Positions 21,782-49,832 of a DNA stretch of 64,000 bases are shown piece after piece; within the stretch, counting starts at the first letter, position 1, and each line of letters begins with the position of its first letter. The stretch is from Gammaproteobacteria bacterium (lineage in GTDB: Bacteria; Pseudomonadota; Gammaproteobacteria; UBA4575): positions 1,386,265 to 1,450,264 of the forward strand of contig OY759361.1 in the NCBI GenBank assembly GCA_963662355.1, given 5' to 3'. The notes beneath the pieces were generated by a model. It had not been told where the DNA came from and did not search any database. It saw only the letters and a program-made list of their open reading frames with translations. The position numbers and the translations under genes are program-made.

Positions 21782-22018
21782 ACAGGTTTCGGGCCAGGCC
21801 TGAAGATTTGGCTTGCAGGTTTAGACTGACAGGCACTTGAGCCTCGCAGGTGCAGGCGCGGGTATTGGTGCTGGCATGAGGACCTGGCCTGCGTAGACGT
21901 GTTATCCGGACCAGGGCCGCTCCTGGCGGGTTACAGGGTAAGGGCATACATATGCTGACGGGCATTTGTATGATCGTTAAACAACACTTTATATGTGTGG
22001 AATTCAAAGGACTCTGCT
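21782..22018 (+). promoter_or_regulatory. GC-rich structured rplA-rplJ spacer; candidate L10 (rplJ) autoregulatory leader
   Basis: 237-nt spacer with local hairpins (for example CCAGGGCCGCTCCTGG). Corresponds in position to the L10 leader of enterobacteria. Confidence 0.3.
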
Positions 22019-31575: not shown

Positions 31576-31604
31576 TTGACAGCATGACCAAGGGTTTCTA
31601 CAAT
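31576..31604 (+). promoter_or_regulatory. sigma70-type promoter upstream of rpsL (TTGACA-17-TACAAT)
   Basis: TTGACA at 31576-31581, a 17-nt spacer, and TACAAT at 31599-31604, about 65 nt upstream of the rpsL ATG. Confidence 0.5.
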
Positions 31605-31668
31605 TCCGCCGCTGACGCACAGGCCGATGTTTCATCGGCCTGTTGTTTATTTCAGGTATAGAAAATTT

Positions 31669-32043
31669 ATGGCAACTATCAACCAATTGGTGCGAAAACC
31701 ACGCAAACGCAAGGTGGAAAAGAGCAATGTTCCCGCCCTGGCTAGCTGTCCGCAAAAACGGGGAGTATGTACCCGTGTGTACACGACTACCCCCAAAAAG
31801 CCGAATTCAGCATTGCGCAAGGTTGCACGCGTGCGGCTGACCAATGGATTTGAAGTTACCAGCTATATTGGCGGTGAAGGGCACAACTTGCAGGAACACT
31901 CAGTAGTTCTCATACGAGGTGGTCGAGTAAAAGACCTGCCTGGTGTCCGCTACCATACGGTTCGGGGCAGCCTGGATACCCAGGGTGTGCAAGACCGTAT
32001 GCAGGCGCGCTCAAAATACGGCGCCAAGAAACCTAAGTCGTAG
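31669..32043 (+). CDS. rpsL: 30S ribosomal protein S12
   Basis: [13 protein letters not shown]... Confidence 0.95.
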
Positions 32044-32562: not shown

Positions 32563-34662
32563 GTGGCACGTAAGACTCCCATATCGCGTTACCGTAATGT
32601 TGGAATCATGGCACATATCGATGCCGGGAAAACCACTACTACGGAACGTATACTGTTTTATACCGGCATTTCACACAAAATTGGTGAGGTGCACGATGGT
32701 GCCGCAGTCATGGACTGGATGGAGCAAGAGCAGGAACGCGGTATCACCATTACCTCCGCTGCAACTACCTGTTTCTGGAATGGAATGGACAGCCAGTATG
32801 ACGATCACCGCATTAATATTATAGACACGCCTGGCCACGTTGACTTCACGATAGAAGTCGAGCGTTCATTACGCGTTCTGGATGGAGCCTGTGCCGTATT
32901 TTGTGCTGTAGGAGGTGTTGAGCCACAGTCAGAAACCGTATGGCGACAGGCAAACAAGTACCAGGTCCCACGTATGGCGTTTGTCAACAAGATGGATCGT
33001 ACGGGTGCAAATTTTCTGTACGTCGTGAATCAGATCAGGGAGCGGCTAGGCTCGCATGCTGTTCCCATACAACTTGCAATCGGCGCAGAAGACGGTTTCA
33101 AGGGCGTGGTCGACCTAATCGAAATGAAGGCGATTTACTGGAATGAGAGCGACATGGGCACAAGTTTTGAAAGGGGAGAAATCCCCCAGGATATGCAAGC
33201 CGAGTGCCAGAGGTGGCGGGACGAAATGATCGAGGCAGCTGCCGAGTCTTCTGAAGAAATTATGGACAGGTATCTGGAAACAGGGACGCTGTCTCAGGAG
33301 GACATTCGCAAGGGACTGCGCATGCGGACCTTGTCCAATGAAATCGTGCCTACCTTATGTGGCACGGCCTTCAAGAACAAGGGTGTGCAGGCCATGCTTG
33401 ATGCCATCATTGAGTTCATGCCTTCGCCGACTGATGTACCTGCAATTCAAGGCATCCTGGAAGACAAGGGCAATACCACTAGTGTGCGAAACTCCTCGGA
33501 TGACGAGCCGTTCGCATCCCTTGCGTTTAAAATCGCTACAGACCCGTATGTAGGCACACTTACTTTTTTCCGCGTGTATTCAGGTGTTCTGAATTCAGGC
33601 GACACGGTATATAACCCGGTTAAAGGGAAAAAGGAACGTATTGGTCGGATTCTGCAGATGCATTCAAATTCCCGTGAAGAAATCAAAGAAGTTCGTGCGG
33701 GCGACATTGCTGCTGCGGTCGGTTTAAAAGCTGTGACCACGGGTGAAACCTTATGTGATGTGAACAATGCCATTACCCTGGAGCGCATGGAATTCCCGGA
33801 GCCTGTGATTTCCGTTGCTGTTGAACCAAAAACGAAAACTGATCAGGAAAAGATGGGTATTGCCCTGCAGAAACTGGCTCGGGAAGATCCGTCATTTCGT
33901 GTGCGTACCGATGAGGAGTCTGGTCAGACAATCATTTCTGGTATGGGTGAGCTACACCTTGAAATTATTGTTGACCGTATGAAACGGGAATTCAGTGTGG
34001 CAGCCAATGTGGGTGCGCCACAGGTCTCTTATCGTGAAACCATTCGTAGAAGTATTAAACAGGAAGGCAAGTTTGTGCGTCAATCAGGTGGGCGTGGACA
34101 ATACGGGCATGTGTATCTGAGGATCGAACCACAACAACCCGGTGATGGGTTTAAATTTGCAAGTGAGATCGTAGGTGGAGTGATACCTAAAGAATATATT
34201 CCTGCCGTTGAAAAGGGGGTTAAAGAAGCCGTATACAATGGTGTAATCGCAGGCTACCCTGTTGTGGATGTTAAAGTTACTTTGTATGACGGTTCTTTTC
34301 ATGATGTGGATTCTTCCGAGATGGCATTCAAAATTGCTGGTTCCATGGCCTTTCGCGAAGGGGCCAAGCAGGCTGATCCAAAATTGCTGGAACCTGTCAT
34401 GAAAGTTGAGGTGGTAACTCCTGAAGAACACATGGGGGATGTAGTGGGTGACCTGAACCGTCGTCGCGGTATGGTAGGGGGAATGTCCGACAGTCCTTCG
34501 GGAAAGGTGATTTCTTCTGAAGTCCCGTTAGCTGAAATGTTTGGGTATGCCACTGACTTGCGTTCCGCCACACAGGGCCGGGCAACCTATTCGATGGAAT
34601 TTCATAAATACAAAGAGGTTCCGTCGAACCTGGCAGACGCAGTCATTAAAAAGAATAGCTAA
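32563..34662 (+). CDS. fusA: elongation factor G
   Basis: GTG start giving [35 protein letters not shown]. The longer ORF from 32428 overlaps the rpsG 3' end. Confidence 0.93.
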
Positions 34663-34704
34663 ACCAAGGTATTATCATTAAGATATTTTACGAGGTAGAG
34701 AACA

Positions 34705-35895
34705 ATGTCCAAAGAGAAGTTTGAGCGTACCAAGCCGCATGTGAATGTGGGAACGATTGGTCATGTAGATCATGGCAAGACTACTTTGACGGCAGCGTTG
34801 ACCAAGGTTATGGGTGAATCCCACGGGGGTGAGTACAGGACTTATGACCAGATTGACAATGCCCCGGAGGAACGTGAACGCGGTATTACCATTGCTACGG
34901 CTCACGTAGAATATGAAAGTATCAATCGCCACTATGCTCATGTTGACTGTCCAGGTCATGCCGACTATGTAAAAAACATGATCACAGGTGCAGCCCAGAT
35001 GGACGGTGCCATTCTTGTAGTGAGTGCAGCAGACGGTCCGATGCCCCAGACACGCGAGCATATACTGCTGGCCAGGCAGGTGGGTGTCCCCCATATTCTG
35101 GTATACATGAACAAGGCCGACCAGGTGGATGATCCAGAGCTGCTTGAACTGGTTGAAATGGAAGTAAGGGACCTTCTTTCCACCTACGAGTTTCCGGGTG
35201 ACGATACACCTATCATCGTCGGTTCTGCCCTTAAGGCCCTGGAGGGGGATACATCGGAGACAGGAATTCCCTCAGTAATTAAGCTCGTAGAGCAAATGGA
35301 TGCATTCGTCCCTGAGCCGGAACGTGCCATCGACGGAGACTTTATCATGCCTGTAGAAGATGTTTTCTCGATCTCCGGACGAGGAACCGTTGTTACGGGC
35401 AGGGTCGAGCGCGGGGTTGTCAAAGTCAGTGATGAGATAGAAATTGTCGGCATTCGTGAAACTGCCACCACTATCTGCACGGGTGTTGAAATGTTTCGCA
35501 AGCTGCTTGACCAAGGCCAGGCAGGTGATAATGTGGGTGTGCTGTTACGAGGTACCAAACGAGATGAAGTTGAGCGTGGGCAGGTATTGTGCAAGCCGGG
35601 CAGTATTACCCCGCATACAAAGTTTGAGGCTGAAGTCTACATCCTCAGCAAGGAAGAAGGTGGACGGCATACTCCGTTTTTCAACGGCTACCGCCCCCAG
35701 TTCTACTTCCGTACCACCGACGTTACAGGTGCAGTCGACCTTCCCAGTGGCACTGAGATGGTAATGCCGGGGGATAACATACATATGGTGGTTTCCTTGA
35801 TTGCCCCGATTGCTATGGAAAAGGGTCTGCGTTTCGCAATTCGCGAAGGCGGGCGTACCGTAGGGGCAGGGAAAGTATCAAAGATTATTGAGTAA
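34705..35895 (+). CDS. tuf: elongation factor Tu
   Basis: [32 protein letters not shown]... Confidence 0.97.
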
Positions 35896-35925
35896 CCGGA
35901 GGCTGGTCAAACAGTAATATTCAAG

Positions 35926-36240
35926 ATGGCTACAGGACAGACAATACGGATTCGCCTGAAGGCATTTGATCACCGTTTGATAGACCGCTCTGCAAGTGAA
36001 ATTGTAGAGACAGCTAAGCGAACCGGTGCAAGGGTAAAAGGTCCTATTCCATTGCCGACAAAGAAAGAGCGTTTTACCATACTGATTTCACCGCATGTTG
36101 ACAAGAATGCCCGCGATCAATACGAGATTCGAACGCACAAGCGAATCATGGACATTGTTGAGCCTACCGATAAAACAGTGGATGCCCTGATGAAGCTAGA
36201 CTTGGCGGCTGGTGTCGATGTGCAGATTAAGCTGAGTTGA
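35926..36240 (+). CDS. rpsJ: 30S ribosomal protein S10
   Basis: [28 protein letters not shown]... Confidence 0.95.
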
Positions 36241-36349
36241 CGGTTCTGCAGTTCAGGCGGGGGGTTAAAGCAAGCGAATCTGGTAAAGACTGAGTATAAA
36301 GAAAATACTTTCCTGAAACTTTGAAATTTGGGATAATGTGGAGTTTGCT

Positions 36350-36383
36350 GCGACCCGGCATGGGGGAACCCATGCCGGGTCGC
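36350..36383 (+). promoter_or_regulatory. perfect 15-bp GC-rich hairpin (GCGACCCGGCATGGG-GGAA-CCCATGCCGGGTCGC) in the rpsJ-rplC spacer
   Basis: Inverted repeat with a GGAA tetraloop read directly from the sequence. No downstream T-tract. Confidence 0.5.
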
Positions 36384-36437
36384 GGTTATCCGGAGAGGTA
36401 AAACTCTTGTTCACTTTGAATCGTATGTAGTGCAGAT

Positions 36438-37142
36438 ATGGCTTTAGGACTTGTTGGAAAAAAAGTTGGCATGACGCGTGTTTTCACGGAAGCGGGTGAG
36501 TCTGTTTCCGTTACAGTTCTGCACATGCCCTGCAACCGGGTCACACTGGTTCGTCGGCATGAAGTTGATGGCTATGATGCGATACAGGTGACCTACGGCG
36601 CCAAGAAAGCCTCAGGTATTAACAGGCCTGCATCTGGCCATTTTGCAAAGGCAGGCGTTCAGGCTGGAAGGGGTTTACGCGAATTCAGGTCAGAGAAGGA
36701 ACAGCTGGAAGCCTTTGATGTTGGATCGGAGCTAGGTGTTGGGTTGTTTTCTGTTGGTCAGAAAGTTTCTGTATCTGGTGTGTCAAAAGGCAAGGGTTTT
36801 GCAGGTTCTGTCAAGCGCCACAACTTTCGAATGCAAGATGCAACGCACGGGAACTCCATATCGCATCGTGCACTGGGTTCTACAGGACAGTGCCAGGATC
36901 CTGGCCATGTATTCAAGGGAAAGAAAATGGCAGGCCAAATGGGCGGAGTACGTGTGACAACGAAAAATTTAAAAATTGTACAGGTCGATGAAGGGAAAAA
37001 CCTGCTTTTGATAAAAGGTTCAGTACCAGGGGCCACAGGCGGGGATGTGGTAGTACGTCCTGCTCATGCCAGTGAAGTCAATATTCCTGATCAGGGGAAG
37101 CTTGCGGATTCTGCAGAAGAACCTGGTGCAAATGAAGCCTAG
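36438..37142 (+). CDS. rplC: 50S ribosomal protein L3 (about 25-aa C-terminal extension)
   Basis: [23 protein letters not shown]... Confidence 0.93.
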
Positions 37143-37155
37143 TGGTGATTGAAGC

Positions 37156-37761
37156 ATGGAACTCGCGGTATTCAATACAAAATCCACGGTAACGGTATCG
37201 GACGATATCTTTGCAAGGAGTTTCAATGAGCCTCTGGTCCATCAGGCCGTGACTGCATATCTTGCCGGTGCTCGCAGTGGAACCAAGGCAAATAAAAGCC
37301 GGAGTGACGTCAGGGGAGGTGGTGCCAAACCATGGCGACAAAAGGGAACAGGCCGTGCACGTGCAGGTACATCCAGCAGCCCCTTATGGCGTTCCGGTGG
37401 AGTGACCTTTGCGGCGAGACCACGCAAGCACAAACAAAAGCTGAACAAAAAAATGGTCCGTGCGGCCTATGCCAGCATGTTCTCAGAGTTGGTTCGCCAG
37501 AAATGCTTGCACGTTGTCGAAGCATTTACAGTAACCGAGCCTAGCACCAAGCAGGCCCTGGAGCAGTTGGAAAATCTAGAAGTTGTATCCGCATTGATTA
37601 TTACAGAAGAAGCCGATAAAAATTTGTATCTCTCTGTACGCAATCTTCCATATGTTGATGTTGCAGAGGTGGGTGGACTGGATCCTGTCAGCCTGTTTAA
37701 GTTCCGGCATGTGATCGTCACCAGGAGTGCGCTGCAGGCAATTGAAAAGTGGCTGCAATGA
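37156..37761 (+). CDS. rplD: 50S ribosomal protein L4
   Basis: [11 protein letters not shown]...[18 protein letters not shown]. Confidence 0.95.
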
Positions 37762-40982: not shown

Positions 40983-41247
40983 GATCGATAAGAAAGTTCG
41001 TACCCTGTATGGCAAGGTAGTAAGCGACAAGATGGACAAGACTGCGGTTGTAATGCTGGAACGTCTGGTTAAGCACCCGCTGTATGAAAAGTACATCCGG
41101 CGTTCTACAAAATTACACGTGCATGATGAACATAATGAGTGCGCAGTTGGCGATAAAGTATCGATTCAGGAGTGTCGCCCTGTTTCTAAAATGAAATCAT
41201 GGCGGTTGGTTGAAGTTATCAAACGTGGCGTAGAGACCCAGGTTTAA
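40975..41247 (+). CDS. rpsQ: 30S ribosomal protein S17
   Basis: [26 protein letters not shown]... Confidence 0.95.
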
Positions 41248-41257
41248 TGAGGCCCCT

Positions 41258-41626
41258 ATGATTCAGATGCAAACCATGCTGGGAGTAGCAGATAACAGCG
41301 GAGCACGCAAGTTGCAGTGCATCAAGGTGCTGGGCGGGTCACAGCGTCGCTATGCTGGGATAGGTGACATAATCAAGGTGAGCGTTAAAGATGCAATTCC
41401 ACGAGGCAAGGTTAAGAAAGGCGAAGTGTATAACGCGGTGGTAGTACGAACGGCCAAGGGTATACGGCGTCCTGACGGGTCCCTGATTCGATTCGATAGC
41501 AATGCTGCAGTATTGCTGAATAGCCAGTTGCAGCCTGTGGGTACCCGTATATTTGGGCCTGTGACACGTGAACTGCGTACAGAACGTTTTATGAAAATCA
41601 TATCCTTGGCACCGGAAGTATTGTAA
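41258..41626 (+). CDS. rplN: 50S ribosomal protein L14
   Basis: [27 protein letters not shown]... Confidence 0.96.
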
Positions 41627-46876: not shown

Positions 46877-46977
46877 ATACCTGGATTTGTGGGATTAGGT
46901 ATGTATTTAACTGGCTTGACTGTTAGAATCCGCTGTCGGCAAAAGGCTGCGGATACTATTTTTTCAAGGATATTCTG

Positions 46978-49806: not shown

Positions 49807-49832
49807 AAGCCAGGTGAGACCTGGCTTTTTTG
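49807..49832 (+). terminator. rho-independent terminator after rplQ
   Basis: AAGCCAGGT-GAG-ACCTGGCTT (9-bp stem) followed by TTTTT(G). Confidence 0.8.

Follow-up and report, generated by a model that had tools for sequence, protein, structure and literature searches.

The genes rpsJ (S10/NusE) and rplC (L3) are separated, in the 64,000-nucleotide (nt) stretch of gammaproteobacterial DNA analyzed here (contig OY759361.1, positions 1,386,265 to 1,450,264; hereafter, the window), by a long spacer containing a perfect palindrome, and the question is what such an element does in the middle of a ribosomal-protein gene cluster. The plus strand of the window carries the classical tRNA-secE-nusG-rplKAJL-rpoBC-rpsLG-fusA-tuf-S10-spc-alpha supercluster, and the spacer occupies positions 36241-36437. 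The initial annotation had rightly described rpsJ and rplC as split by a long segment, the length of which is 197 nt by these coordinates and not 198 nt. As detailed below, the palindrome encodes a conserved RNA hairpin, and we propose, with a probability of roughly 45%, that it belongs to a clade-specific intercistronic module that would combine an internal promoter with a 5' stability or processing stem-loop for an rplC-led operon.

The hairpin is a conserved sense-strand RNA structure

The palindrome, GCGACCCGGCATGGG-GGAA-CCCATGCCGGGTCGC, is located at positions 36350-36383, and its 15-base-pair (bp) arms are 100% complementary, just as the initial annotation had stated, together with the GNRA-type loop and the lack of a T-tract. 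No other perfect inverted repeat of that length is present in the 64 kb, and none of 100 shuffled sequences gave a match. On the plus strand, the RNA stem lengthens from 15 to 18 bp by U.G, C-G, and G.U pairs (hairpin at 36347-36386, GGAA loop at 36365-36368) and folds with an energy of -40.4 kcal/mol (z = -8.0), compared with -34.9 kcal/mol on the minus strand, a value worse by 5.5 kcal/mol.

A comparison of spacers in relatives, which had been suggested as a check, revealed that the hairpin and its surroundings are kept in 21 loci in addition to the window (L001-L008, L010, L011, L081, L085, and L088-L096; L3 identity 68-99%), one of which, L003, comprises only the 3' 87 nt of the conserved segment, its contig beginning inside the hairpin. 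Covariation was analyzed on a MAFFT alignment of 20 sequences. Standard pairs were found in 96.5% of the stem cells, in comparison with 31-40% in controls with slid partners; double changes occurred at four stem pairs (16 cells), and the covariation score was higher than in 500 of 500 shuffles. Two covarying pairs were represented by A-U in 10, G-C in 9, and G.U in 1 sequence and by G-C in 11, A-U in 5, and G.U in 4 sequences, respectively, while a set of 11 sequences gave the same picture. One-sided variants, when read on the plus strand, were of the G.U type at eight pairs and of the A.C type solely at the terminal pair. The hairpin is, hence, a structure conserved in sense-strand RNA, in the same orientation as the ribosomal genes. 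At the same time, 11 of the 17 stem pairs counted are identical in bases in at least 18 of the 20 sequences, and the loops, mostly of the GNRA type (GGAA, GAGA, GAAA, GGGA), vary in sequence.

The best L3 matches (76-82% identity) came from metagenome-assembled genomes of uncultured Gammaproteobacteria or 'Thiotrichales' with chromosomes of about 1.85-2.1 Mb, and a contig from the marine-sponge metagenome MKWU, a Mediterranean sponge data set (PMC5099237, PMC5649159), is nearly identical to the window (S10 100%, L3 99%). The conserved segment is missing from L097, which has an L3 identity of 66% and a spacer of 97 nt. We also observed that the L003 contig begins in the 5' arm of the hairpin (L003 1-45), that L009 begins 30 nt into rplC (L009 1-3), and that many other contigs stop 0.3-1.5 kb upstream of rplC, near tuf, which suggests that the palindrome and the duplicated tuf gene are points where assemblies break.

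A promoter-like block and the proposed intercistronic module

Beyond what the initial annotation had noticed, the hairpin turned out to belong to a larger, clade-conserved module, its -10-like box is invariant, and covariation indicates a sense RNA. In clade loci, the last 140 nt or so of the spacer (36296-36437 in the window, plus strand) align well, while the first 20 to 240 nt are unalignable; in the window, this variable 5' part spans 36241-36295 and is devoid of a terminator-like site. A covariance model built on the module, R1, matched the window at 36296-36438 with 149 bits. From 5' to 3', the module is composed of the A-tract AAAGAAAAT, the T-tract TTTCCT, CTCTGA-like bases, TTTG-n-GATAAT, a 10-nt stretch, the hairpin, and GUUAUCCGG, which is followed by a small A-rich-loop hairpin, about 30 poorly conserved A/U-rich nt, and the rplC AUG. 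Rfam revealed nothing relevant either on the whole window at the gathering threshold or on positions 34500-37500 at E <= 10, the only sub-threshold match being mraW, which scored 20.5 bits (threshold 50) on the wrong strand. Neither did our literature searches on the rpsJ-rplC region, ribosomal-protein leader (r-leader) candidates, and the str operon yield a description of the module. The module itself is new, while the kinds of elements involved (internal promoters, 5' stem-loops, and lineage-specific r-leaders) are already known.

The AT-rich promoter-like hexamers pointed out in the initial annotation are indeed present. Most conspicuous is an extended -10-like sequence, TG-n-GATAAT (TGGGATAAT, 36329-36337, plus strand), which apart from n is invariant in 20 of 20 sequences and agrees with the extended -10 consensus TGnTATAAT at all but one of its eight specified positions. 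When two further bases upstream are included (TTTG-n-GATAAT, 36327-36337), all named bases are likewise invariant in the 20 sequences; n, which is G in 18 of them, A in L010, and T in L096, is the sole position left free by the consensus. A weak -35-like hexamer, TTTCCT, is found 17 nt from the -10 box (36309-36314, plus strand, 3/6 match), and its TTT and last T are invariant; in the family it reads TTTCCT or TTTTCT, with the same 3/6 score and the same spacing. The -35 hexamer is dispensable in the extended -10 promoter class. The A-tract AAAGAAAAT (36298-36306, plus strand; alignment columns 13-21, nearly invariant) lies at -46 to -38 from the proposed transcription start, where, by textbook promoter geometry, it would be in the register of the proximal subsite of an UP element. 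The start itself would be a purine pair at 36342-36343 (plus strand), 5-6 nt past the -10 box, within an RRYT pattern (alignment columns 57-60). The primary 5' end of such a promoter would be expected about 6-8 nt downstream of the -10 box, the distance at which this pattern lies. It is conserved within the stretch between the -10 box and the stem, which has a fixed length of 10 nt with no indels and is otherwise free in sequence.

In the window, sequences differing from TGNTATAAT by at most one base are depleted (25 observed versus 47 +/- 7 in shuffles), as would be expected if spurious extended -10 promoters were selected against, and because of this depletion, the copy preceding rplC is unlikely to be tolerated noise. 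The organism clearly uses E. coli-like signals, judging from a classical promoter before rpsL (TTGACA-17-TACAAT, about 31577-31605), invariant across the clade, and from a terminator of the U-tract type behind rplQ (49807-49827). The latter is the first canonical terminator downstream of rplC, and the rplC-to-rplQ stretch might accordingly represent a possible transcription unit of about 13 kb.

Other readings of the upstream block were considered and rejected: (i) a sigma-54 promoter, as inspection of the alignment revealed no GG-N10-GC; (ii) a sigma-E promoter, as TCTGA occurs without a convincing GGAACTT at -35; and (iii) a leader peptide encoded by a 21-codon open reading frame (ORF) starting from the ATG in GATAATG, since this ATG is missing in L004, L005, L090, and L091 and indels shift the frame. 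A second promoter-like box followed by a hairpin was found in the rpmJ-rpsM spacer (46921-46965), where the extended -10-like TGTTAGAAT precedes ATCCGC...GCGGAT and T6; it is present in the window, L001, L004, L005, and L008, while L002 and L007, which have shorter spacers, lack it, and it is accordingly not a clade-wide feature.

Upstream of the module, the tuf gene (EF-Tu; 34705-35895, plus strand), the last large gene of the str unit, was recognized from its ORF and translation and is 92-96% identical to tuf of the relatives L001-L010. It is followed by a gap of exactly 30 nt (35896-35925, plus strand), as initially reported, in which we found neither a hairpin nor a promoter call, and by rpsJ (35926-36240, plus strand; ORF and translation), with an identity of 96-99% in L001-L011 and 100% in L081. 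The initial annotation had joined rpsJ to the tuf transcript. As a statement about gene spacing this held, since the gap is 19 nt (L093) to 80 nt (L091) in the 18 family loci that contain both genes, and in 19 spacers scanned for terminators, the segment leading from rpsJ to the module was free of terminator-like sites. We infer from the short gap (30 nt) and the missing terminator that rpsJ has become part of the str/tuf transcription unit. Because no terminator precedes the module, read-through RNA from tuf-rpsJ is to be expected.

According to the proposed mechanism, rpsJ would be transcribed along with tuf, while an extended -10 class, sigma-70-type promoter about 100 nt before rplC, made up of the A-tract, the weak -35, and TG-n-GATAAT, would start a new transcript covering rplC-rplD-rplW-rplB onward, possibly to rplQ. 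The start would lie about 4-5 nt ahead of the 18-bp, -40 kcal/mol stem-loop with its GNRA-type cap. On RNA initiated at this promoter, the stem-loop could act as a 5'-terminal shield against 5'-end-dependent decay, while on RNA reading through from tuf-rpsJ it could serve as an intercistronic barrier or segment boundary. In the latter, the base of the stem might be extended by pairing of GGAUAA, the -10 sequence, with a conserved UUAUCC. Of the functions that the initial annotation had offered for the hairpin, an RNase processing or stability element agrees with everything seen and is the one that we favor. A consensus fold of 19 leaders, taken from the proposed start, consists of one hairpin, about 55 nt away from the AUG, and an unstructured A/U-rich leader, and such a lone hairpin with a loose loop sequence would fit a generic stability element. 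The small A-rich-loop hairpin (AGAG-GUAAAA-CUCU, 36394-36407, plus strand) does not appear in the consensus fold, and most relatives have a similar small hairpin with register shifts.

One of the closest known counterparts, next to lineage-specific r-leaders (PMC3616713, PMC7247131) and terminator-promoter junctions that concatenate operons of the same supercluster (PMC6735719), is the class of 5'-terminal stabilizing stem-loops of the ompA 5' untranslated region type, which were reportedly described by Emory, Bouvet, and Belasco in 1992. Both are very stable hairpins a few nt from the actual or presumed 5' end of a long mRNA, with an unimportant loop and no terminator tail. However, the 5' end is predicted here, conservation of the stem sequence goes far beyond what the structure demands, and the hairpin would also be internal to read-through transcripts.

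Several points weigh against this interpretation. A generic sigma-70 scan did not call the block, the -35 hexamer of which matches at just 3/6 positions and which has a G at -12. Nor would a promoter be strictly required, as no terminator separates rpsJ from the module in the 19 spacers. The predicted 5-nt 5' tail would be at the upper limit reported for 5'-hairpin protection in the ompA work on E. coli. Furthermore, a plain promoter does not explain the conserved CTCTGA within its spacer, and a plain promoter with a generic hairpin explains neither the nearly invariant stem sequence nor the UUAUCCGG flank; these three features may point to a protein or nuclease that recognizes specific sequences.

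If the interpretation is true, a clade of sponge symbionts with small genomes redrew a classical operon boundary: S10/NusE would be expressed together with EF-Tu, and a dedicated promoter with a 5' hairpin would drive the L3-to-L17 ribosomal-protein block. The module also adds a cis-element absent from Rfam, well supported by covariation and by 21 orthologous loci, to the few control RNAs of ribosomal operons known outside model organisms, and it would be a compact example of complementarity between a promoter's -10 box and the leader transcribed from that promoter. General principles are unchanged by the finding.

Alternative explanations

The alternative that survives best, which we nevertheless regard as doubtful, is an autoregulatory operator, in which the product of a downstream gene (L4, as in E. 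coli, or else L3, L23, or L2) would bind to the hairpin and its flanks. The initial annotation had raised this possibility in the form of a relocated L4-responsive structure, which our results neither support nor exclude. The element heads rplC-rplD, its stem and flank sequences are kept well beyond the needs of pairing, and other gammaproteobacterial lineages contain a different structured and covarying leader at the same place, beside the rplC Shine-Dalgarno sequence. In addition, r-leaders are typically restricted to particular lineages (PMC3616713), and a candidate L4 r-leader has been published for Archaeoglobi (Eckert and Weinberg 2020, PMC7247131), which is likewise a non-coding element directly upstream of rplC-rplD-rplW-rplB. 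The Archaeoglobi element, however, belongs to another domain of life, shares no demonstrated homology with the module, and is rated as uncertain by its own authors (PMC7247131).

The operator hypothesis is weakened by the comparison with the S10 leader of E. coli, which the module does not resemble in sequence, covariance model, or architecture. That leader comprises five hairpins (HA-HG), of which HD-HG are conserved and HG lies over the S10 start codon, along with an attenuator with a U-run (PMC3616713). The two have in common that they are structured, lineage-restricted non-coding RNAs heading a transcription unit with rplD (L4). Yet the E. coli leader is located upstream of rpsJ, while the module is between rpsJ and rplC, with only 30 nt preceding rpsJ, and instead of a multi-hairpin structure with a U-run-bearing attenuator, the module has one regular hairpin with no U-run. 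A blastn-short search against the E. coli S10 leader returned just 7-mers (E = 1.8), and model R1 found nothing above 10.8 bits (E at least 2) in E. coli loci. The Rfam negative is uninformative on this point, as Rfam gave no match to the E. coli leader itself. A regular stem with a free loop sequence is also atypical of ribosomal-protein binding sites, and occlusion of the start site is unlikely given the distance of about 55 nt to the AUG and the poor conservation in between. Words shared with E. coli 23S/16S rRNA do not exceed 8 nt, which is less than the mode of 9 nt in shuffles, and mimicry of rRNA was therefore rejected, this being a weak test that used E. coli rRNA rather than that of the clade itself. 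Two other RNA-binding candidates were discarded: a BoxA/BoxB (Nus antitermination) likeness of the hairpin with the downstream CUCUUG, since the downstream segment is not conserved in the family, and a CsrA-type GGA in the loop, since the loops of L006, L007, L092, and L096 lack GGA.

The most novel form of this operator hypothesis, which is equally doubtful, is an undescribed autoregulatory leader: the feedback control point of the S10 operon (for L4 or another downstream protein) would have moved by one gene, from before rpsJ to before rplC, when rpsJ joined the str/tuf unit. If true, this would be a bacterial parallel to the split between tuf-S10 and the L3 operon in archaea, where S10 is linked to the EF-1alpha/tuf unit and not to the L3 operon.

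A site for RNase III is an unlikely explanation when taken as an alternative, although it is compatible with the promoter model and the two do not exclude each other. Here, a duplex of about 24 bp in the read-through RNA would be cut, and the tuf-rpsJ and rplC segments would then decay independently. Such cleavage is known in E. coli at the rplL-rpoB and rpsO-pnp sites. The conserved 3' flank of the stem, TTATCCGG (36386-36393, plus strand), contains TTATCC, complementary to GGATAA of the -10 box (36331-36336), and the resulting GGAUAA/UUAUCC outer helix, which could form on read-through RNA only, is paired in 95.8% of cases in the 20 sequences. RNase III substrates have about two turns of regular double-stranded RNA; in the window, the duplex would consist of the 18 bp and the possible 6-bp outer helix across a 10-nt internal loop. 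A long and regular duplex of this kind, the otherwise unexplained complementarity between the -10 box and the flank, and the read-through RNA expected from the lack of an upstream terminator all speak for a processing site. On the other hand, no covariation was detected in the outer helix, which is disrupted in part in L008, L010, L088, and L096, the 18 bp of the stem are short for efficient cleavage, and the conserved 40-nt block upstream is left unexplained.

A role of the hairpin as a terminator or attenuator, by which fewer transcripts of the highly expressed tuf-rpsJ would run on into the ribosomal-protein genes, is very unlikely. EF-Tu is needed in excess over ribosomal proteins, and a very stable GC-rich hairpin soon after rpsJ would be suitably placed. 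The GC-rich stem-loop of a terminator is present, but the 3' U-run is not: no T-run follows the stem in the window (GGTTATCCGG), the terminator scan did not flag the hairpin, and in 0 of 20 sequences is there a U-tract 3' of the stem, which is followed by GGUUAUCC or AGUUAUCC, while the same genome contains canonical U-tract terminators. Moreover, the hairpin lies downstream of the promoter-like box and would also stop transcripts that are meant to pass. Terminator-promoter overlaps do join operons of the same supercluster in Salmonella (2019, PMC6735719), and these resemble the module in placing a hairpin and a promoter within about 50 nt inside the same ancient cluster, with the implied coupling of upstream read-through to downstream initiation. 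They differ, however, in that true terminators overlap the promoter, while the hairpin described here has no U-tract and is downstream of the -10 box, and in that the present junction, rpsJ/rplC, is not a canonical operon boundary.

We consider it highly improbable that the palindrome acts as DNA, i.e., as an operator to which a dimeric repressor would bind immediately past a promoter. Such an operator could look like what is seen here, an inverted repeat of perfect 15+15 form that adjoins a -10-like box and whose half-site is highly conserved. Nevertheless, the one-sided changes are compatible with G.U pairing on the plus strand at eight pairs versus A.C at one terminal pair, and the extension of the stem exists solely as plus-strand G.U pairs; because of this asymmetry and of the confinement of the extra pairs to the plus strand, we regard the element as RNA rather than a DNA operator.

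Finally, a repetitive extragenic palindromic (REP) element or one resembling a miniature inverted-repeat transposable element, inserted in the operon as the initial annotation had put forward, is effectively refuted, as the hairpin turned out to be single-copy and orthologous in the window, in about 1.25 Mb of related loci, and in a metagenome collection. Its size and palindromic form are similar to those of REP elements, which, as bacterial interspersed mosaic elements (BIMEs), stabilize intercistronic mRNA (malE-malF); like REP/BIME sequences, it is GC-rich, palindromic, about 35 nt long, and located between cistrons, where it could block 3' exonucleases. However, REPs occur in hundreds of copies, and neither the 34-mer nor one arm, with up to 3 mismatches allowed, recurs in the 64 kb. 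In the related loci (about 290 kb of which derive from the clade itself), model R1 detected one orthologous plus-strand copy per clade locus and none elsewhere, the weaker minus-strand matches representing the same palindrome. A degenerate pattern derived from ten relatives gave five matches in a metagenome collection of 241 million records, which includes the sponge metagenome with the near-identical strain: two were clade rpsJ-rplC spacers (L081, L085), and three were unrelated GC-rich hairpins in other contexts, so the orthologous site was the only one recovered. The element is, besides, kept at the same site, with compensatory changes, down to 68% L3 identity.

Spacers in other lineages and the gene neighborhood

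The initial annotation had called rpsJ and rplC normally adjacent. This is correct for E. coli, with a gap of 32 nt, and for Sedimenticola and Thiodiazotropha, with 10-12 nt, but not for several other gammaproteobacterial lineages, in which we found long structured spacers of 160-255 nt; long rpsJ-rplC spacers are, consequently, not rare in Gammaproteobacteria. Tight linkage of tuf and rpsJ is ordinary: many of the sampled relatives show it, with gaps of 2-8 nt in Sedimenticola and Thiodiazotropha, and it is generally the rule in archaea and cyanobacteria.

A different conserved element was found in the rpsJ-rplC spacers of L012, L013, L015, L016, L019, L026, L031, L038, L047, L051-L054, L061, L063, L066, L067, L069, L070, L075, L076, and L080 (for example, L047 9810-10000). 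In these Pseudohongiella-type spacers, a canonical terminator stands straight after rpsJ (e.g., GGTAGCGAG..CTCGCTACC followed by T6), and a leader of about 70 nt, GUGYAAYRCGU-CAG-YGGCCAKAGCGGGUUYRAGCCCCKUGCAC, ends 5-6 nt before the rplC Shine-Dalgarno sequence. The leader is of a junction type and combines a hairpin that covaries (UGC/GCA, CGC/GCG, CAC/GUG) with a T-loop-like GGGUUYRAGCCCC; in four loci that were scanned, no Rfam family reached its gathering threshold. This is apparently an rplC r-leader candidate, so far undescribed, of Pseudohongiella and its relatives among the Pseudomonadales. Homology of the module with this leader, or with the spacer hairpins of L073 and L077, was rejected, as R1 matched none of them. 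Because Pseudohongiella-type genomes carry an unrelated covarying leader there, the rpsJ-rplC spacer appears to be a recurrent regulatory site. If the displaced control point proposed above is also real, this spacer would be a recurrent and overlooked site of ribosomal-protein regulation outside enterics.

Downstream of the module, rplC (36438-37142, plus strand; ORF list and translation) encodes an L3 of 234 amino acids (aa) with a C-terminal extension, and no clear Shine-Dalgarno sequence precedes it in the window, as is often the case in relatives, where none is recognizable. In the clade, L3 is 232-263 aa long (two called products have about 305 aa; homologues P0001-P0083), compared with 209-216 aa in other Gammaproteobacteria, and the extra length is apparently an acidic C-terminal extension of low complexity.

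Three further observations were made in the neighborhood. The gap between rpsQ and rplN is only 10 nt (41247-41258), which means that the S10 and spc operons are fused. The rplA-rplJ spacer (21782-21994), where an L10 leader would be expected, is 213 nt long and GC-rich and had no Rfam L10-leader match at the gathering threshold. Lastly, rpsL in the ORF list begins at an upstream in-frame ATG (31627-31668), while the conserved S12 N terminus, MATINQL, starts at 31669.

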